Shown: positions 42,263 through 59,090 of the stretch, in pieces
Layout of the letters: each line of letters begins with the position of its first letter
Numbering within the stretch: position 1 is the first letter of the stretch
Origin: a virus
Length of the DNA: 64,000 nt
IMG/VR virus record: IMGVR_UViG_3300027969_000055
Span: 1-64,000 of that record
Direction: 5' to 3' (one strand)
Made by a program: the position numbers and the translations under genes
The notes under the pieces: generated by a model
What the model saw: only the letters and a program-made list of their open reading frames with translations
Database searches by the model: none
Told to the model about the DNA's origin: nothing

Positions 42263-42445
42263 ATGGAAAAGACGGCTAAAAATATTGATAACTACCGAAA
42301 GGGTAAAGAACCTTTAAAAAATGCAGTTATGCAACATCCAACTGGTAATGATGTATACGATTTTTTACAAAAGAATATTGAGCGTGACTTCTGGGTAACG
42401 CCTTTTTCAAAATGGCAAAAAGCCCAAAAATATCACAAAAACTAA
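42263..42445 (+). CDS. small hypothetical protein
   Basis: 60 aa, directly after ATAAATAA 42251. Confidence 0.6.
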   Translation: MEKTAKNIDNYRKGKEPLKNAVMQHPTGNDVYDFLQKNIERDFWVTPFSKWQKAQKYHKN

Positions 42446-42864
42446 TGTTCGGATTAGAAGATTTAACAGAACCTCAAACTGGCTCAGAAAATACAATTTC
42501 GTATTTTATGCTATCTCTTATGCAGATAGCTGATCAAGCTAAAATTATACACTGGCAAACTGGGTATGATACAGAACACCGTCACTTTGGAATGTTTTAC
42601 GAAACTTTCATTGAGCAAATGGATACACTAGTAGAGGCAATTGCTGGTAAATACGGTGCACAACACCTTAAATTTGGCGAAGCTGCAATTATGGTATACG
42701 ATTATGAACTATCAAGAACTGAATTTTTTAATTTGGTTCAAGAAGCTCTTCGTGGAACATTTTGCGAGATTTTTGAAAAAGATAAAGACTCTGAATTATA
42801 TAATTTAGTGGACGAAATTCTAGACTTAACTAACAAAACTCAGTATTTACTGCAACAAAAGTAA
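42445..42864 (+). CDS. ferritin/Dps-like protein (DUF5856-like)
   Basis: Start moved to ATG 42445; IIHWQT...HRHFG.FYE....MDTLVE, LYNLVDEI..NKTQYLL. Confidence 0.7.
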   Translation: MFGLEDLTEPQTGSENTISYFMLSLMQIADQAKIIHWQTGYDTEHRHFGMFYETFIEQMDTLVEAIAGKYGAQHLKFGEAAIMVYDYELSRTEFFNLVQEALRGTFCEIFEKDKDSELYNLVDEILDLTNKTQYLLQQK

Positions 42865-42865
42865 T

Positions 42866-44428
42866 ATGTTTCTAAACGTAAAAAGACTATCAATATTCGA
42901 GAAGTTAATTCTTGAAACTGACTTGATTCAAATTGGATCAAGCGTTAGTGGCCTATTGGATAAAGCAAAGGAGGCTAATTCTAGACAAGAAAATGACTCT
43001 AATAAAAAGATTGATATAACTTCTTACGTTAATCAATTATTAGATTACCTGTTTAGCTTGGGAGAAGAAGAGCTTGATGCAAAGTTGAATGATCCAGCTT
43101 TTATGAAGGTGTTTAGTGATCCTAAAGTAAAGGACCTATTTGATACTTATTTTACTTACTTAGAGGATGAATTGCGAGGTTTTCGTGAAGAGTTAAGCCA
43201 AGCACTTAATGAACCTGAAATTAATGTTCAAAAAGTTGAGAAGATAACTCAAAAAATGATGATCTTTGCAGCTAGGACTCAAGTAGTTGAAAGAATTTAC
43301 ACAAAGCAGTCGGAAACTGGCCAATCGGAGTTTAGCACTGAAATTAATGAAAAGGTTAAAAAGATTCAACAAGACCTACTTGATATTTATGCGTTAAAGG
43401 TTATGCTACCAGCTAAAAAAACACAAGAGGCGTATTCACAATATCAAGCGGCCCAAACCGAAGAAGATAAAACTGAGGCGGCTACTAAAATTTTGTTAAG
43501 TATCGAAGCAGCTGACCAAATGTCAGAGGATATGCCGCCTGAGGTAGTTACTGGAATTGAAACAGCAAATGATGAATATCAGAAAAAGATTGAAAATGAT
43601 TTAGGAAAAGAAACCTTAGCAAACATATTATCAGGAGTTCATGTAAATAAAAACGTTGCATCATTGATTCGTAGAATATTTCAGTTTCAATATACAATGT
43701 GGACAAATGAAGATGATATTAACCGAGAAGCAAATTCGCTTAAAGTTAGTATTAACGGTTTTCCTGACGTATCGGAAGATGCTAAAGAATACCTACGTAG
43801 GCTAGTTGAAAATATCCAGGCTGAACTACTTAATAAAGCCAAAAACAAAGAATTTGATACTAAAAAATATAAGGGAATTCATTATGATTTCAATAAGAAA
43901 TTACCCCTATATGAAAGAACTGCACTACCTGTTACAGGTAAACAAATCGCAGATGATTCTAAATTAATGAAATTTAGAAAAGCTTCGCAAGATCTAATGG
44001 CACTTATTTTCGGCGCCGGCGGTGCACCCGATACTGAAACAGGTCGAGCATTTGCGGCAACTGGTAAGCATCTACACACGATCTATGCAAAAAGTCTCAA
44101 CGGCTTAGGTAAAGTTATCGGAAAAGCAATTGGAGGTAGAGAAGGTGAAATGAAGGCTGATGCTTATACTCGAATGTTTATATTAGACACATCAGTAGTT
44201 GATCAGAAAAAACCAAAACAAGTTAGTGAAGACGGCGGAGTATCTGCCCCAGGAGTAGCTATTCAAACCCCAGGCTCAATTGGATCAATGGGACCAATTA
44301 CACCGCCTACTCAAACTACATTAGGTTCAGGAGATAACTTTGGACCAAAAATTAATAAAAAGAAAACCAAAAAATCTTCATCCATTCTTGGATTTGCGGA
44401 TTTTATAAAAGAACAAAATAATTTATAA
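42866..44428 (+). CDS. helical hypothetical protein with capsid N-arm-like C-terminus
   Basis: 520 aa; APGVAIQTPGSIGSMGPITPPT..GSGDNF and terminal ILGFADFIKE. Confidence 0.75.
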   Translation: MFLNVKRLSIFEKLILETDLIQIGSSVSGLLDKAKEANSRQENDSNKKIDITSYVNQLLDYLFSLGEEELDAKLNDPAFMKVFSDPKVKDLFDTYFTYLEDELRGFREELSQALNEPEINVQKVEKITQKMMIFAARTQVVERIYTKQSETGQSEFSTEINEKVKKIQQDLLDIYALKVMLPAKKTQEAYSQYQAAQTEEDKTEAATKILLSIEAADQMSEDMPPEVVTGIETANDEYQKKIENDLGKETLANILSGVHVNKNVASLIRRIFQFQYTMWTNEDDINREANSLKVSINGFPDVSEDAKEYLRRLVENIQAELLNKAKNKEFDTKKYKGIHYDFNKKLPLYERTALPVTGKQIADDSKLMKFRKASQDLMALIFGAGGAPDTETGRAFAATGKHLHTIYAKSLNGLGKVIGKAIGGREGEMKADAYTRMFILDTSVVDQKKPKQVSEDGGVSAPGVAIQTPGSIGSMGPITPPTQTTLGSGDNFGPKINKKKTKKSSSILGFADFIKEQNNL

Positions 44429-44870: not shown

Positions 44871-45344
44871 ATGAAAAACAATTACGTTAAACCTTTCGGT
44901 ATATTTAATGAGTCATTAGAAGAGTCAGTATCTGCTGGTTCAAATTGGTATTATGGAATAGCTGATTGCCATGGATTAGAATCCTTTATGAAGGAACCAG
45001 ATATGGCTGATGCAAATGAGTTAGATGACCTATTTGACTTGGGGCTTAGTGATACTGATTCAAAAAACGATCCTGTTAAAAAGGAGTATGTTGGTAATTT
45101 ATCAATGATGCAAATGCGCTGTAGATACAATGGTCAACGTCATCCGGTTGTTTATAGAGCCAAATTATCAGAAGACGATGCCGATATGGTACAAGATCTA
45201 TTAGATAGCGGTGACTATATTAATGCACTTAATGTAGTTAAGGGAAATTCACAAGAAGTTCAATTAGCCAGAGGTGGAAATGGCTCAGCTGAAAAAGCTT
45301 GGAAGATGATTCCAAATCCGGATTTGGATCCAATGCACTATTAA
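44871..45344 (+). CDS. hypothetical protein
   Basis: Start moved to ATG 44871; GIADCHGLESF, IPNPDLDP. Confidence 0.7.
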   Translation: MKNNYVKPFGIFNESLEESVSAGSNWYYGIADCHGLESFMKEPDMADANELDDLFDLGLSDTDSKNDPVKKEYVGNLSMMQMRCRYNGQRHPVVYRAKLSEDDADMVQDLLDSGDYINALNVVKGNSQEVQLARGGNGSAEKAWKMIPNPDLDPMHY

Positions 45345-45378: not shown

Positions 45379-45684
45379 ATGAAGCTCTCAGTAGGTGACA
45401 AAATTAGGATTCACGTAGATGTGGAAGAAATGCAAAACGATTTGCTTGAAATGGTAGATGGCCAAGAAGCAATCGTTACCGAAATCTATCAAAATAGTTA
45501 TGAACCTGATGTCGATCGAATTGAAGTTGAATTAGTTAATCCAGTTGAGTTTCATGGACAAAACCTAGTGGTTGTTCCAGGTTTATATATGGATAATATT
45601 GAAAAGATTGAAAAAATTCAAGAAAGCAAGAAAACTAGTAACCGCTACTTACGTAGATTCGTTGGCACTTTTGCAAATTATTAA
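45379..45684 (+). CDS. SH3/KOW-like hypothetical protein
   Basis: LSVGDKIRI...GQEAIVTEI. Confidence 0.65.
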   Translation: MKLSVGDKIRIHVDVEEMQNDLLEMVDGQEAIVTEIYQNSYEPDVDRIEVELVNPVEFHGQNLVVVPGLYMDNIEKIEKIQESKKTSNRYLRRFVGTFANY

Positions 45685-52433: not shown

Positions 52434-53342
52434 TTGAAGAATCACTACGAGACCCTTGGAGTTTTAGAAACCTCGACTCATGACGATATACGAAAAGCAT
52501 ATCGAAAACTTGCAACCAAATATCATCCAGATAAGAATAGCGGAAGCTCTGAAGCAGAAGATAAATTCAAAGAAATTGCGGAAGCTTATGAAACTATCGG
52601 TAATGAAGATAAGCGTAAGGCTTATGACAATTCCAGAAAGTTTAATGGTTCAGCTAATGCTGATTTTTTTGGTAATTTTGGATCTTTTAGAGACTTTTCA
52701 TTTGGCGGAAATAGACCTCATGATTTTAGGAATTTAACAATAACTGTTGATAAGTGGGCAACTATTAAGGAATTAATGGACGGAGCCTCATTTGATATAC
52801 AATATATTGTAAATAAAACTATTTCAGGCTCGGCAAAATCTGAAAATAAACAAGTTAGGGTTAAAATTGACTTGACTAATGAAAGTTATCCGATTACATT
52901 TGATAATGGAAGATATTTAATTACGTTAAAGGTTAGAGGAGGCGGGTCAAGTCAAGAAATTGAAGAATTTGATTATTTTAGTAAAAAAAGAAATGCAGTA
53001 GTTACTGGTGATTTAATAGTTCGTATAAACATTGATATGTTAGGACTTACAATTGACCAAAGTGATATTATTCAGGACTTTGAGCTAAGTTTACACGATA
53101 TATTATTCACGGAAGAAGTTATCCTGGAGAGCCCAATGGGCAAAAAGTATCGTATTAAATCATTTAATCGGGATACCTTAAGTAATATAACAGTTAAAAT
53201 ACCGAGTCAGGGCTTACTCTCTGCATTTGGCCATAAAGGAAATTATGTGTTTAAGATCTTGGTTAAAAAGCCAAATTTTTCAAACATAAGTGAAGAAAAC
53301 TTACAAATTTTAAAAGACTTGCTGATTGACGTTAATAAATAA
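52434..53342 (+). CDS. dnaJ: DnaJ-family co-chaperone
   Basis: J-domain [24 protein letters not shown] region, no Zn finger; TTG start. Confidence 0.85.
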
Positions 53343-53409: not shown

Positions 53410-55398
53410 TTGACTACTACTAATATTAAAAGTTTAAACCAGCCTGCTGTCCCAGAAAATTCAGTGTTTATCATTGAACATCTAAATGAAGCGGTTACGG
53501 TAACTAGAGAAAACAATGATGTTATTCTTGAAGGTACTGCGGCAGTTTTTGGAGTAATGAACGAAAACAATCGTATTTACGAAAAACAGGAATACTTACC
53601 TCATTTAACTTACTTAAATGAGAAGATCAAACAGCGTAGACTATTTGGTGAACTTGATCATCCACAAAAATTTGACGTTTCATTAGCTAATGTATCTCAC
53701 GTAATTGAGGGACTTACTTATGATGAACCAACTAATAGTGTAAAAATTAGACTTCGTCTATTAGATACACCATGCGGTAGAATTGCAAAAACCTTGGTTG
53801 AAGCAGGTTGTACTACTTCAATTTCTTCAAGAGCTGCAGGTAATGTTGCTGAGAATGGAAAGGTTAAATTAGCAAAAATATTCACATACGATTTGGTTGC
53901 AGAACCAGGTTTTGCACAAGCAGCGCTTGGCCAAGTATCTGAAAGTTTGCAAAATAATTATTCAGCAATCTTTGAATCACTAGATTCATTAAGAACTACG
54001 GCAATCACTACCAAGTTAACAGATATTTCTGAAAACTTTGGTTTCGAGGATTCTGTGAAGATTTACAGAATAAATAATCAAGAAATACCAACTAAACAAA
54101 ATAACACACAGCAAATGGCTAATGAGTTTGTAACAAAAGAAGAGATGAATCAGTATTCTGAACTGGTTAAAAAGAAATTTTCTTCACTACAAGAGAACAT
54201 CTCTAAAAACAACAAAGGTCTTCAAAAGATCAGCGAAAACGCAACCGAAGGAGAATCTCCAGTTGTTGCTAAAATGGTAGAATACGTTAACTATTTAGCT
54301 GGTGAAATGGAGCAATTGGTTGAATATTCTAACTATCTTTCAACAATGTTGAATCAAGGTATTAATTACACTGAGCATGTTGCAGAGAAAGTTAATACAG
54401 TAATCGACTATTCTGACTACTTAGCAGAAAAAGTAGAAAAGAATATTCAATACTCTGACTATCTAGGAGAGAAAGTTAATCAAAACATTAACTATTCTGA
54501 ATATATTGCAGAAAACGTAGAAAAAACAGTTGAATACGCTAACTACATTGCAGAAAACGTAGATAAAGGAATTCAATACACTGAATACGTTGCAGAAAGT
54601 GCAGAAAAAGGAATTAAGTATTCTAACTATTTAGCTGAAAACTTAGATGCAGCTATTAAATACTCAAACTATCTTGGAGAAAATCTTCAACAAGGTATTA
54701 AATACTCAGAATACATTGCTGAGACTCTAAATGAGAAAATTACACCATCTGCTTTAACTAAAACTCGTTCTTTACTTGGAGAAGTTAAAAAATTAAACGA
54801 AGGTGTAGAATTTGAAGTTAATGAAACTTCTTCAGTTGACGATTTAGTTGGAGCAGTTGATGGAATCTTAACTCACATTAAGTCAAATTCAGCTAAAGCT
54901 GTTTTGGAAAACAAATATCCATTCTTAAAATTGTTAAACGAAGGTCGTAAACAAGCATTCTATAATTTAGATCAAACTACTAAATCGGCAATCGTTGAAA
55001 CAATGCAAGGAGCGATCTACTTTAACGAAGGTGAAGTAGTTAATATTATGGAAGCTGTTCTTAACAAACAAGTTGAAAACACTCCTAACTATATTAAACT
55101 TATGCCAGCTGCATACAAGCAATTATTTGAAAGTATGACTGAAGGAGAAAGAAATTGGATGGCTTCTCAAGCTAACAACTTCACTCTAAATACTTCGTAT
55201 CAAGTTAAGTCTTTCTGGGATTCTCGCGATTTCAGAGGAATTAATGAAAGAATTGCAACTGAGACAATTATAAATAATAATTCTATTAACGAAAACCAAG
55301 GTAAAGAAGGTTACGTATCGTTAAACCAAATAAACGAAAGTCTACGTGGTTATTCTAATAACTACATGGACGCTCTTAAAAGAAGAGCACAAAATTAA
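53410..55398 (+). CDS. gp21: prohead protease (gp21-like) fused to scaffold/core domain
   Basis: NENNRIY, GELDHP, VSHVI, SISSRAAG, YDLVAEPG; then 14-aa coiled-coil repeats. Confidence 0.85.
   Translation: MTTTNIKSLNQPAVPENSVFIIEHLNEAVTVTRENNDVILEGTAAVFGVMNENNRIYEKQEYLPHLTYLNEKIKQRRLFGELDHPQKFDVSLANVSHVIEGLTYDEPTNSVKIRLRLLDTPCGRIAKTLVEAGCTTSISSRAAGNVAENGKVKLAKIFTYDLVAEPGFAQAALGQVSESLQNNYSAIFESLDSLRTTAITTKLTDISENFGFEDSVKIYRINNQEIPTKQNNTQQMANEFVTKEEMNQYSELVKKKFSSLQENISKNNKGLQKISENATEGESPVVAKMVEYVNYLAGEMEQLVEYSNYLSTMLNQGINYTEHVAEKVNTVIDYSDYLAEKVEKNIQYSDYLGEKVNQNINYSEYIAENVEKTVEYANYIAENVDKGIQYTEYVAESAEKGIKYSNYLAENLDAAIKYSNYLGENLQQGIKYSEYIAETLNEKITPSALTKTRSLLGEVKKLNEGVEFEVNETSSVDDLVGAVDGILTHIKSNSAKAVLENKYPFLKLLNEGRKQAFYNLDQTTKSAIVETMQGAIYFNEGEVVNIMEAVLNKQVENTPNYIKLMPAAYKQLFESMTEGERNWMASQANNFTLNTSYQVKSFWDSRDFRGINERIATETIINNNSINENQGKEGYVSLNQINESLRGYSNNYMDALKRRAQN
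54277..54738 (+). repeat. 11 degenerate 42-bp (14-aa) repeats
   Basis: (I/V)xY(S/T)(E/N/D)Y(L/I/V)AE-type unit, e.g. IKYSNYLAENLDAA, INYSEYIAENVEKT. Confidence 0.85.
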
Positions 55399-55416: not shown

Positions 55417-57138
55417 ATGGCAACAAAAATTTTCAAAAAATTGAACGACGCTTCAATTAAGGAAACTTGGACCCCAGTTTTAGAAGGTTATGGTGCAAAC
55501 GTTACAGCTCGCCCTTGGTTAGTTGACTACGCTCACAATCATGCTATCTTCGATAACGCAGGTTCAATCAATGAAGCAAACACTGGAGTAGCTCCAGGTT
55601 TATTCTTACAACAACCTGGTTCTATCAGTGCTATGGGTGCAATTAGTTCTCCAACGAGTTCTATGACTCCATTCACAGGTGGTGCTAAAAACGGTTACGG
55701 TGCTTCTGTATCTGGTTCTGGTGATAAATTCCCAAGCCTTTTACCAGTTGCAATCCAAGTAGCTGCTAAAACTATTGGTTTCGACCTAGTTGGTGTAGTT
55801 CCTATGGATTCTCCAGTAGGTTTCCTACCTTACTTGGATTATGTATACCAAGGTGGTAACATCGACAAACAATATGAGCCTTATTTAATTAAGATCACTG
55901 GTTTGTTAGAAAATGCTGCAGGTTCTACAGTAAACGGTATTGCAAATGGTGATAAATTCCCAGTATCTAAATTGCCTTTTACTGAAGGTCTTAACTACGG
56001 TATTAACGAAAGTAATACTGACTTAGTTTTACAATTCGTTGGTAAATCACGTGTTGATGGTTCTCCAATCTTCAAAGTTATCCTATCTCATGATGGTGGT
56101 ACTCTTGCTGATTACTTTGCAGCTGACGTTGATATTCAACCAGCAAATGCAACTGACGTTTCAGGTACTGCGGTAGTAACTTTCCGTACAGCTGATAACA
56201 AAGTTGAATTAGTTTCTGCTTTAGAAAACCATATTTCTGGTTTTACTTCAGTATCTGACGCTGATTACGCTACATCTGATTTCAACGGTCCTTATATGGG
56301 ATCTACTGGAACTCAAATGGAAGGTATGGCTCGTCAAACTGCTGAAACTTCTAAATTCCGTCAAATGGGTCTTCGTATGTTCACTAAGTTCATCGAAGCA
56401 AAAGGAGATCAAGTTTCTATTTCAGCAACTGTTGAACAAATCCAAGATCTTAACCGAGTTTGGAACTTTGACGTAATCTCTATGTTAGAGAATGTAGCAG
56501 TTAACGAATTAGCTCAATCAATCAACAAAAAGTTAGTTGACCGTGTTCTTAATTTAGGATCAGTTCACGCTACTGCTGTTGAAGGTGTTGAAGGTGCAGG
56601 TATCACTACTTTGGACCTAACTGTTGGAACAACTGGATTTGAGAATATCTCAACTCTACAACGTCGTGTTGTAACTAAAATTCTTGAAATGGCTAACTTG
56701 ATTTATCATAGAGGTCGTTTCGGTGCAGGTACATACATCGTTACTAACGGTCGTGTTGCTTCTGCTTTAGCAGATGTAGCTGGTTACTCTTTCGCTCCAT
56801 TCAATAATGATCTTCCATCTACTGCTGGTCAATTGTATCCTGCAGGTAAAGTACATGGTTTAACCATCTACGTTGATCCTAACTTGAAATTCAGCGATAA
56901 CCGTATCCATATCGGTCGTAAAGGTGCTGATGAAGAGCCAGGTGTTAAATTCCTTCCATATATCATGGCAGAGAGTCTTCAAACAATTGCAGAGGGAACT
57001 TTCTCTCCGAAAATTGGTATGAAATCTCGTTATGCTATTACCGAAGCTGGATGGCACCCAGAAACTCAATACATTACGTTGGCTGTAACAGGTCTAGGAG
57101 TATTGACTGGTTCAACTCGCCCTGCTTCTTCTTACTAA
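55417..57138 (+). CDS. gp23: major capsid protein (T4 gp23-like)
   Basis: WTPVLE, DLVGVVPMDSP, EQIQDL, ELAQSINK, YVDP, FLPYI, TFSPKIGMKSRYA; highly biased codons; follows protease. Confidence 0.9.
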   Translation: MATKIFKKLNDASIKETWTPVLEGYGANVTARPWLVDYAHNHAIFDNAGSINEANTGVAPGLFLQQPGSISAMGAISSPTSSMTPFTGGAKNGYGASVSGSGDKFPSLLPVAIQVAAKTIGFDLVGVVPMDSPVGFLPYLDYVYQGGNIDKQYEPYLIKITGLLENAAGSTVNGIANGDKFPVSKLPFTEGLNYGINESNTDLVLQFVGKSRVDGSPIFKVILSHDGGTLADYFAADVDIQPANATDVSGTAVVTFRTADNKVELVSALENHISGFTSVSDADYATSDFNGPYMGSTGTQMEGMARQTAETSKFRQMGLRMFTKFIEAKGDQVSISATVEQIQDLNRVWNFDVISMLENVAVNELAQSINKKLVDRVLNLGSVHATAVEGVEGAGITTLDLTVGTTGFENISTLQRRVVTKILEMANLIYHRGRFGAGTYIVTNGRVASALADVAGYSFAPFNNDLPSTAGQLYPAGKVHGLTIYVDPNLKFSDNRIHIGRKGADEEPGVKFLPYIMAESLQTIAEGTFSPKIGMKSRYAITEAGWHPETQYITLAVTGLGVLTGSTRPASSY

Positions 57139-57256: not shown

Positions 57257-57622
57257 ATGAGCAATTCTGTTTTAAACTACTCACAATTTCTTTTAGAAAA
57301 GAAAGCAATCAACCAAGAAATGGCTGAATTACCTAAAGGTAAAGGTTCAAAATCTAACACTACTGTAAAACCAGCAATGTCTGAACTTCCTAAAGGAAAA
57401 GGAAAGGGTATTAGCAAATCAGTAAAACCTGAAATGGCTACTCTTCCTAAAGGAAAAGGTAAAATGATTGGCAAATCAGTAGATACAAAAGTTTCTAAAT
57501 TACCTACAACTAAAGGTTCTTCACCTAAAAAATCAGTAGACTCTAAAATGTCTAAATTGGTAATTAAAGGTAAAGCTATTAGTAAGAAAGTTGAGCCTAA
57601 CATGGCTAAAATGCCTAAGTAA
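57257..57622 (+). CDS. Lys-rich repeat protein (putative DNA-binding internal protein)
   Basis: VLNYSQFLLE then 19-aa repeats M(A/S)xLPKGKG (57-bp spacing at 57320, 57377, 57434). Confidence 0.7.
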   Translation: MSNSVLNYSQFLLEKKAINQEMAELPKGKGSKSNTTVKPAMSELPKGKGKGISKSVKPEMATLPKGKGKMIGKSVDTKVSKLPTTKGSSPKKSVDSKMSKLVIKGKAISKKVEPNMAKMPK

Positions 57623-57950: not shown

Positions 57951-59090
57951 TTGAGCGCACAAGGAGTAATAGCTGAATCAACCGTAAGTTTTAAAATAAC
58001 TTGGGATAATCCAGGCAATGGTCAACAGCCAAAGTGGGATCAAAATAAACAGTCAATTGAGTTACATCAAACTGATGTTTATCCTGATCTGGAATATGTA
58101 TCAGCATTTGCAGCTCCAATCTATACTAAGTATACGTCTGGATCACTTCTAAATGACTTAATAGTTGAGATCAATAAAGTTATTGACTCTAAATTAGCAA
58201 GTAAGTCTGACAAAAAGAAAAAGGTTGATGAATTGTATCTTAATTCTGGACCTTCTGCTCCTAAACAATTAGGGGCTGGCCAAGAAGAAGATGCTGAAGA
58301 AGATGATGAATTGTATCTTAAGGCTGGACCTTCTGCTCCTAAACAATTAGGGGCTGGCCAAGAAGAAGATGCTGAAGAAGATGATAAATTATATCTTAAG
58401 GCTGGACCTTCTGCTCCTAAACAATTAGGTGCTGGCCAAGAAGAAGAGACCCAGATTAAAGCAGATGATGAGAAGCCCGCTGAGATTATTGATACTAATA
58501 AAGAAGTAGATGATGAACCTAATGTGAAGACTGATGATCAGGAGTTAGTTACTGCAACTACCACCATTGCACCAGAAAAAAGAGCGTCATCTGCGTACAC
58601 AGTTACAGTATACGGAGATAAACTAAGATTTTTAGAGGGTCAAGAAGGAAGAGGAGCTTATTCTGCTGGAATTAAGTTTCTATATAAAGTTTCAAATAAC
58701 CTGACCAAACAAGTAGCTGGAGATAAAATTGATAACCGGGAAAAGATTTGGGCAGAAGTTTCTGGATCTGGTCTATTATCAAATGTAATACGATTTGAAT
58801 TTGCCGAGTTTGATGAAATTGAATTTAAGTTTGGAGGAAATTTACTAGCTCAGGTATTTCCATCAATTGAATTAAGTTTTACGCCTGATCCAAATTCAGT
58901 GTACTCAAAAGAAAAGCCTGAACTTGATATTGCAGATGTTATTAAGGCAACTAATATTACGTTAGGCACCAAAACAACCTCTGAGATTAAGTCTCTACAG
59001 AAACAAATACAAAAAGAAATTGAATCGCGTGAACCTGTTGAAAAACAAAAGCAACCTGGTAAACAAAGCGCTTCGATTGATAATAAATAA
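57951..59090 (+). CDS. hypothetical protein with internal 26-aa tandem repeat
   Basis: TTG start; DELYL..GPSAPKQLGAGQEE x3. Confidence 0.7.
   Translation: MSAQGVIAESTVSFKITWDNPGNGQQPKWDQNKQSIELHQTDVYPDLEYVSAFAAPIYTKYTSGSLLNDLIVEINKVIDSKLASKSDKKKKVDELYLNSGPSAPKQLGAGQEEDAEEDDELYLKAGPSAPKQLGAGQEEDAEEDDKLYLKAGPSAPKQLGAGQEEETQIKADDEKPAEIIDTNKEVDDEPNVKTDDQELVTATTTIAPEKRASSAYTVTVYGDKLRFLEGQEGRGAYSAGIKFLYKVSNNLTKQVAGDKIDNREKIWAEVSGSGLLSNVIRFEFAEFDEIEFKFGGNLLAQVFPSIELSFTPDPNSVYSKEKPELDIADVIKATNITLGTKTTSEIKSLQKQIQKEIESREPVEKQKQPGKQSASIDNK
58227..58447 (+). repeat. 78-bp near-identical tandem repeat (about 2.8 copies)
   Basis: Units start at 58227, 58305, 58383. Confidence 0.9.
59083..59090 (+). promoter_or_regulatory. 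late promoter for tail tube gene
   Basis: ATAAATAA overlapping upstream stop. Confidence 0.7.

Follow-up and report, generated by a model that had tools for sequence, protein, structure and literature searches.

A conserved copy of the capsid N-arm tip at the C-terminus of a putative internal head protein of an uncultured phage with a gp23-like capsid

A 520-aa head-module protein encoded on a viral contig of 116,370 bp (34% G+C) ends in a tail that is a genuine homolog of the tip of the major capsid protein N-arm and is kept under selection. The homology spans a conserved Glu and two motifs, termed Box A and Box B, and the tail probably uses the binding site of the capsid N-arm during head assembly. 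The phage is uncultured and known from contigs alone. The window (the whole stretch of DNA analyzed, 64,000 nucleotides) is the first 64 kb of the contig. Within it, the 520-aa ORF and the capsid gene belong to one structural block, the ORF being 11 kb upstream, and the region is flanked by baseplate-hub-like and tail-tube genes. The two genes and the elements compared between them are:

42866..44428 (+): 520-aa head-module protein (ORF), no Pfam or PHROG family, 108 + 21 homologs
44222..44230 (+): VSE453-455, putative prohead-protease site, at which cleavage would free the 65-residue tail D456-L520
44246..44311 (+): tail Box A, A461-T482, APGVAIQTPGSIGSMGPITPPT, copy of capsid residues 59-80
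44324..44341 (+): tail Box B, G487-F492, GSGDNF, copy of capsid residues 100-105
55417..57138 (+): gp23-like major capsid protein, 573 aa, Pfam Gp23 (E 2.9e-41)
55567..55575 (+): INE51-53, putative maturation cleavage site, N52 and E53 conserved without exception across 52 capsid proteins
55591..55656 (+): capsid Box A, A59-T80, APGLFLQQPGSISAMGAISSPT, tip of the mature N-arm
55714..55731 (+): capsid Box B, G100-F105, GSGDKF, preceding PSLLPVAIQV...

The likeness had been pointed out in an earlier note, and the sequences given there were confirmed by translation: positions 44246-44341 encode APGVAIQTPGSIGSMGPITPPTQTTLGSGDNF, and positions 55591-55731 encode APGLFLQQPGSISAMGAISSPT followed by 19 aa and GSGDKF. 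The capsid spacer from PT to GSGDKF, given in that note as 17 aa, is the one detail that had to be corrected, to 19. Both stretches do follow a hydrophobic-x-E site: in the 520-aa ORF it is VSE453-455, and the capsid protein has INE51-53. BLASTP between the two proteins returned a single significant HSP, residues 461-505 against 59-107 (33.9 bits, E 1e-5, 18/49 identical); since the remaining HSPs had E-values of at least 1.6 (1.6 for the next one), the two proteins are otherwise unrelated, as the note had held. Significance against low-complexity controls was assessed using composition-preserving shuffles. The Smith-Waterman score of 73 was reached by 0/2000 shuffled tails (31.4 +/- 5.1, z 8.2) and by 0/2000 shuffles of the equally G/S/P/T-rich N-arm (29.8 +/- 5.8, z 7.5). 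Among the 131 stop-to-stop frames of at least 100 aa on the contig, the capsid protein was the top non-self match of the tail (73; next 41), and the patterns PGS[ILVM]..MG, GSGD.F, and MG.I..PT, searched in all six frames of the contig, occurred in these two ORFs alone.

Profile comparisons extended this result to the wider families. Alignment of 102 unique tail segments with 86 unique capsid N-termini using hhalign gave a probability of 98.2% (E 6.2e-14) and paired the E site (E455 with capsid INE53) as well as both boxes, leaving a single gap of 15 columns that corresponds to the capsid spacer. A profile built from 16 tails alone had exactly two matches per genome in 5/5 genomes (43-93% complete), one at the tail and one at the capsid N-arm, with capsid matches at E 3e-14 to 3.5e-7; the motif is accordingly present outside the capsid gene in relatives as well. 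In the reverse direction, a capsid query picked up the tail ORFs of the genomes G005, G008, G013, and G029 (E 3e-5 to 8.5e-4).

In the PDB, the capsid protein matches chains of T4 gp23 (E 4e-14), and the closest phage records are LR756500 (38% identity), Lak phages (33-37%), and Tenacibaculum phage PTm1 (32%). INE53 lies at the position at which T4 gp23 is cleaved (after residue 65), as placed by the alignment of the stretch that follows, and the segment PSLLPVAIQV... right after capsid Box B aligns with T4 gp23 residues 91-131. Since capsid residues 105-144 align with gp23 residues 91-131, Boxes A and B fall at the extreme N-terminus of the mature gp23*, i.e., in the arm-tip position. T4 gp23, in which aa 66-105 become the extended N-arm and the 'N-fist', belongs to the same Gp23 family, and it is exactly this arm-tip part that is copied in the tail. 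The arm of the present capsid protein is, however, about 26 residues longer than that of T4 gp23, and Boxes A and B have no recognizable T4 counterpart, the alignment starting only at Box B and weakly. The capsid pattern, which consists of a hydrophobic-x-E site, APGLF[LFY]QQPGSI...G....P, a variable spacer, and GSGDKF-PSLLP, was found in 120/120 of the capsid proteins listed. The AF2 model of the capsid protein (52-sequence alignment) was poor, with a mean pLDDT of 56.8 and an N-arm below 50, and is therefore uninformative on the placement of the arm.

In the 520-aa protein, the copied motifs are part of a cassette (residues 456-520) in which a hydrophobic-x-E site is followed by Box A, a spacer of 4-5 aa, Box B, a lysine run, and an F..F helix. 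The remaining elements of the protein, together with the protease presumed to act on it, are:

42866..42916 (+): N-terminal CTS-like propeptide, residues 1-17 (...SIFEKLILE17), with an L-x-E end, assigned by sequence pattern
44348..44374 (+): lysine run K495-K503, KINKKKTKK
44384..44413 (+): C-terminal CTS-like amphipathic helix I507-E516, ILGFADFIKE (AF2 helix 510-517)
53410..55398 (+): prohead protease (S77) with a repeat-rich scaffold-like C-terminal part (Pfam, PHROG)

Across 71 aligned family members, the invariant residues were E455, P462, G463, P469, T482, G487, and G489; within Box B, S488, D490, and F492 were at least 90% conserved beside the two invariant glycines. E455 was thus retained in 71/71 members, 64 of which have L, I, V, M, F, or A at P3, in agreement with the probable maturation site proposed earlier in front of the tail. 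A K-rich stretch occupies the position of the lysine run in all full-length orthologs, and F510 and F513 of the terminal helix are at least 90% conserved. Column conservation was 0.76 at residues 461-480 and 0.3-0.4 in the body, which places the tail among the most conserved parts of the protein.

An AF2 model based on 71 sequences gave an all-helical body with pLDDT above 90 at residues 50-330; the all-alpha part covers residues about 7-445 and the cassette residues 456-520. Residues 451-509 of the tail were predicted to be disordered (pLDDT below 50), with a short helix at 510-517. Family searches with the 520-aa protein were negative: there was no Pfam hit above the cutoff and no PHROG hit, tblastn against 50,697 phage records gave zero matches, and the ESM Atlas gave no usable match. 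Homology to described internal head proteins was likewise found neither by PHROG nor by Pfam nor by tblastn in the 50,697 phage records. For the body, Foldseek against the PDB gave nothing beyond generic helical matches (best E 0.03), and the VIA wide search returned generic helical bundles with a best Z of 9.8, which is under the level meaningful for such bundles. Nor did the protein match the profile of PF07068, the Gp23/HK97-fold capsid family, with which it has only the N-arm tip in common.

Several properties are those expected of a protein that enters the prohead. The CTS-like motifs that had been noted at both ends were found as F..F/L patterns (SIFEKLILE17 at the N-terminus and GFADFIKE516 at the C-terminus), so that, as a sequence pattern only, the protein has the terminal propeptide with spaced aromatic or hydrophobic residues and a hydrophobic-x-E end that typifies CTS-type proteins. 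E17 was present in 70/71 aligned members, with a hydrophobic P3 residue in every case, and E17 and E455 (71/71) are the only near-universally conserved hydrophobic-x-E sites of the family. The S77 prohead protease that goes with CTS-type internal head proteins is encoded by the 662-aa ORF 53410-55398 (Pfam Peptidase_S77, E 4.1e-10; PHROG head maturation protease, E 4.5e-35), directly upstream of the capsid gene. This protease-scaffold ORF contains 42-nt repeats at 54384-54663, and its protein has a 14-residue repeat array; it is presumed to be the enzyme for both cleavages, that of the capsid protein and that of the 520-aa protein, and is also a candidate partner of the tail. The protein further has the elongated alpha-helical form with a basic, amphipathic C-terminal end of scaffold-type proteins (helices at 7-445, the lysine run, and the helix at 510-517). 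The tail carries 7 K+R against 4 D+E, and the body 61 K+R against 71 D+E. From these motifs we infer an internal location and cleavage of the 520-aa protein, which would then be an internal prohead protein yielding three products: the propeptide (17 residues), the acidic body, and the basic tail (65 residues). As a side observation, many ORFs of the contig carry the F..F/W motif of the C-terminal helix at their N-termini; F..[FW] was found in the first 24 residues of 22/123 ORFs, where about 7.5 were expected.

The family comprises at least 129 cluster representatives that have diverged to 19-27% identity, and the order E...BoxA...BoxB was found in 120/129 of the members retrieved, so that the motif is indeed conserved in orthologs. 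Six of the nine exceptions are fragments without a C-terminus, and three are distant members that keep Box A and have LGPGKK in place of Box B; in this most distant clade the tail is without Box B, and the capsid protein retains it. Tail and capsid protein could both be read in 21 records, and in these the two proteins vary in parallel in the tetrapeptide that comes after the conserved Gly of Box A. In eight records capsid GAI..PT is paired with tail G[PA]I..PT, and in six (three distinct sequences) capsid GNPLAPT is paired with tail G[ND][PA][IV]APT; the capsid spacer in the latter records is 4 residues, as in tails, and 18-20 of 32 residues are identical. The exceptions are G025, with capsid GAAFAPT and tail GNPLAPT, and G027, with capsid GNPIAPT and tail GAAFAPT, and these swaps suggest that both families draw on one small set of variants without one-to-one matching. 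The parallel changes represent only a few independent events within one clade. An all-against-all matrix of tail and arm scores for 18 paired records (G015, G016, and G021, identical to G014 or G020, were omitted) showed no clean preference for the partner in the same genome, and capsid arms with a short spacer scored high with every tail.

Codon comparison was used to examine how the likeness is maintained. Identical residues were encoded by an identical codon in only 3/12 to 9/20 cases, and the nucleotide identity was about 59-61%. The codon comparison rules out recent gene conversion between the tail and capsid genes, and a DNA-level repeat is ruled out by the low nucleotide identity. The likeness is therefore maintained at the protein level without recent DNA exchange, and the shared Box A variants together with the scrambled synonymous sites point to an old duplication kept by selection. 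The distant capsid proteins of LR756500, Lak-C1, LR745206, PTm1, PAU, and MA9V-1 retain a GMG[ASP][IV]..P core and, ahead of the conserved beta-segment, GSGD. With the tail profile, the only match in five distant complete genomes (LR756500, Lak-C1, PTm1, PAU, and MA9V-1) was an unconvincing one, a 63-aa frame at E 0.049; the profile also missed the capsid N-arms of those genomes, and its reach is therefore limited. Because the distant capsid proteins carry the motif and no tail was detected in the five genomes searched, the capsid copy looks ancestral and the tail copy derived. The tail differs consistently from the arm in being richer in proline and in having V[AS]x instead of the bulky capsid LF[LFY].

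The cassette is also found on other carriers. In another phage lineage, the whole of it, from the Glu to the F..F helix, is attached to an unrelated Cys-rich N-terminal part of 69 residues (hhalign 97.3%, E 1.6e-11), and it further occurs as part of a mini-protein of 95 residues and within proteins in which the downstream genes are fused. A search for shorter carriers returned 6 proteins, all of them C-terminal fragments of the same family on short contigs. Its occurrence on several carriers marks the cassette as a portable module, and its presence on the unrelated 69-residue carrier is what would be expected of a portable docking module.

It is fairly likely that the tail and the capsid N-arm tip have a binding partner in common, whichever it may be, and we tentatively name the capsid shell as that partner. 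The sequence of events would be as follows. The CTS-like terminal helices would bring the 520-aa protein into the prohead core, where the S77 prohead protease would cut after E17 and E455 as it would cut the capsid protein after E53. In the freed basic peptide of ~65 residues, Boxes A and B would stand in for the capsid N-arm tip, and the peptide would sit on the surface of a neighboring subunit normally contacted by that tip, thereby fastening to the shell the lysine run and, with it, DNA or core remnants. Shell docking is favored by the tail having its own CTS-like helices, which already target the core and would make a second core-docking element redundant, and by the lysine run, which suggests that the peptide would persist beside the DNA once the core is gone. 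For T4, the partners of this region that have been demonstrated by structure in the cited account are neighboring capsid subunits alone (PMC9546572), and internal proteins anchored on the inner capsid wall in contact with DNA are described for P1 (DarA/Hdf; PMC12810830). Against shell docking count the covariation, which is not strict, and the loss of Box B from the tail of the most distant clade. The absence of LF[LFY] and the higher proline content also mean that tail and arm may not bind identically. A complex prediction for the arm-less capsid protein (residues 106-573) and the tail (residues 453-520) scored 0.00 in two runs performed without controls and counts neither for nor against binding.

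The T4 precedent cuts both ways. As described there, gp23* aa 66-105 make lattice contacts only after they are externalized on expansion; in the unexpanded head they are inside and disordered and are thought to have touched the scaffolding core (PMC9546572). A core partner (scaffold or protease) or the adjacent phage Hsp40 thus fits the data about as well as the shell does. The T4 arm sites, as described in that account, are also external and each is filled by a capsid subunit's own arm, so that a peptide coming from inside would have to find sites that are vacant or different. In an extended form of the shell reading, which we regard as somewhat doubtful, the freed tail would be a free-standing N-arm tip inserted in trans into the capsid lattice where the subunit's own arm is missing or displaced (e.g., at the portal or at pentons). 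It might even thread through the shell during expansion as the T4 arm does, while the polylysine and the helix stay inside and hold the DNA, and lattice completion and genome tethering would then both be achieved by self-mimicry on a portable cassette.

Docking of the shared motif on the prohead core is the chief alternative to the shell and is judged rather unlikely. The motif would bind the scaffold repeats of the 662-aa protein, or a protease exosite that presents the x-x-E bond, and would be released after cleavage and core degradation. Both motifs lie 1-8 residues downstream of a conserved Glu, the tail is predicted to be disordered on its own, and the 14-residue repeats of the protease-scaffold protein could offer many docking sites; contacts between capsid N-termini and scaffolds are, moreover, described as common in P22, T7, SPP1, and 80alpha (PMC9546572, PMC5644958). 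That same spacing from Glu to Box A, varying as it does from 1 to 8 residues, is nevertheless awkward for an exosite. About 15-20 other ORFs lack Boxes A and B yet have x-x-E sites and a CTS-like motif, and targeting and cleavage therefore appear to be independent of the boxes. The tail's CTS-like helices and the conserved lysine run, the latter suggesting a role after the core is gone, count against core docking just as they favor the shell.

A chaperone was weighed in the same way. An ORF at 52434-53342 that combines a J-domain with DnaJ_C (DnaJ domain, E 1.8e-25; DnaJ_C weak, 25.2 bits against a cutoff of 26.6) immediately precedes the protease-scaffold and capsid genes, and the two boxes could be a client motif by which this phage Hsp40 passes the capsid and 520-aa proteins to host DnaK before assembly. 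A full-length homolog was found near the capsid gene, a few kb away at most, in 5/5 tail-bearing genomes and in 0/5 of the distant genomes without a detectable tail, two of which had a J-domain match elsewhere only and three none. This co-occurrence falls within one clade, however, and amounts to a single phylogenetic event. Hsp40/Hsp70 clients are usually recognized via degenerate hydrophobic patches, whereas the motif here is 37 residues long with invariant Gly, Pro, and Asp, and the tail is without the hydrophobic LF[LFY] core of the capsid protein. On balance the chaperone reading is improbable. Least credible of all is that the tail is a functionless relic of a partial duplication of the capsid gene, or a compositional coincidence. 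G, S, P, and T are abundant in both segments and the region is predicted to be disordered, but neither set of shuffles reproduced the score and the profile-profile E-value was 6e-14. Few parts of the proteins in this family, diverged as it is to 19-27% identity, are as well conserved as the motif, and the residues of the motif were kept while the synonymous sites were scrambled.

Docking of the freed tail on the shell was also set against the known systems. The T4 protease cuts after L/I-X-E, with targeting propeptides of 10-19 residues, and Alt is trimmed at both ends (PMC9026906). The T4 CTS proteins (IPI-III and Alt) have short terminal L/I-x-E propeptides that direct them to the prohead core and are removed by an S77-type protease, whereas the 520-aa protein has motifs at both ends and a conserved internal site; it has no sequence relationship to the T4 internal proteins (no PHROG or Pfam hit), and its capsid-arm copy, lysine run, and C-terminal targeting-like helix are not among the features described there for the T4 proteins (PMC9026906). 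In 80alpha and SaPI1, two different proteins, SP and CpmB, have a common terminal 'helix-and-hook' motif that binds one capsid site formed largely by the N-arm (PMC5644958). The predicted structure of the 520-aa protein resembles SP and CpmB in being long and helical with a basic stretch and an amphipathic helix at the extreme C-terminus. There is no sequence similarity, and the 80alpha mimics copy each other and bind the capsid, whereas the present tail copies a piece of the capsid. The P1 proteins DarA and Hdf, which are processed by a protease, anchored on the inner face, and turn a positive surface to the DNA, show the arrangement proposed for the freed tail; DarA anchors by folded helical and loop domains at penton-hexon junctions without a copy of the capsid N-arm (PMC12810830). 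Neither DarA nor Hdf was among the matches listed in the Foldseek PDB and VIA wide searches of the 520-aa protein. A literature search at the level of listings and abstracts showed no report of a capsid-arm copy on a second head protein, T4 included. None of the T4 CTS, the scaffold C-terminal motifs, and P1 DarA/Hdf uses a copy of the capsid's own arm.

Known recruitment relies on short targeting peptides in internal proteins and on C-terminal coat-binding motifs in scaffolds; a conserved copy of the N-arm tip bounded by the same protease-type site would follow a different recruiting logic, that of self-mimicry. If the tail binds where the arm binds, sequence alone would mark the functional contact residues of a large T4-like capsid, and cargo could be loaded into such capsids by means of a natural tag of 37 residues. 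The family that carries the tail is abundant in metagenomes, with more than 120 clusters.

The tail cassette of the 520-aa protein, which consists of a hydrophobic-x-E site, Boxes A and B (copied from the N-arm tip of the gp23-like capsid protein), a lysine run, and an F..F helix, was also found in other protein settings. In three metagenome proteins (P0043, P0113, and P0044), the 520-aa family is joined in frame to homologs of ORFs 44871-45344 and 45379-45684, which lie downstream of the 520-aa gene in the window. The cassette of these fusions is placed between domains, like a polyprotein processing linker. The helical body is absent from two further carriers:

L055:9770-10234, + strand, 155-residue ORF in a record of another phage lineage, with a Cys-rich N-terminal part and the complete cassette
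P0124, 95-residue mini-protein with the complete cassette

Conservation equal to that of the tail was observed in another segment of the 520-aa protein:

43868-43936, residues 335-357, segment YKGIHYDFNKKLPLYERTALPVTGKQIADD, column conservation 0.75

Despite its conservation, YKGIHYDFNKKLPLYERTALPVTGKQIADD was predicted to be disordered, with pLDDT values below 50 for residues 335-351, and it appears to be another conserved linear motif. The gene immediately upstream (ORF 42412-42864), whose stop adjoins the start of the 520-aa gene, matched DUF5856 (4.6e-10) as well as a PHROG that carries the annotation starvation-inducible (Dps-like) regulator.

ORF 53410-55398 encodes a fusion of the prohead protease with a long helical part, in which a 42-nt repeat (14 residues, Y.[DEN]Y[IL]AE.V....I type) occurs in approximately 5.5 copies at 54384-54663. 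This part could serve as a multivalent array on which targeting helices or Boxes A/B dock. Many ORFs across the contig open with a motif resembling a capsid targeting sequence, for example:

Window starts 3749, 4597, 34088, 44431, 44871, 45687, 57642, and 60376, + strand, ORFs with MK..h.F..[FW]h.E

Of the 123 contig ORFs, 22 had F..[FW] within their first 24 residues, versus approximately 7.5 expected from its frequency elsewhere, and this N-terminal excess suggests, at the sequence level, that the set of packaged proteins is unusually large.

ORF 52434-53342, which immediately precedes the protease-scaffold and capsid genes, encodes an Hsp40-like protein (J-domain and DnaJ_C), a full-length homolog of which lies beside the capsid gene in each of five related genomes. 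Among five more distant phages, two had J-domain matches only, located elsewhere in the genome, and three had none. Just 3' of the capsid gene, two ORFs contain near-perfect tandem repeats:

57365-57481, in ORF 57257-57622, 57-nt unit, 2.1 copies, translated as a lysine-rich LPKGKGK unit
58226-58447, in ORF 57951-59090, 78-nt unit, 2.8 copies, 96% match, translated as an acidic ...LYLKAGPSAPKQLGAGQEEDAEEDD unit

Both products may be decoration or internal proteins.
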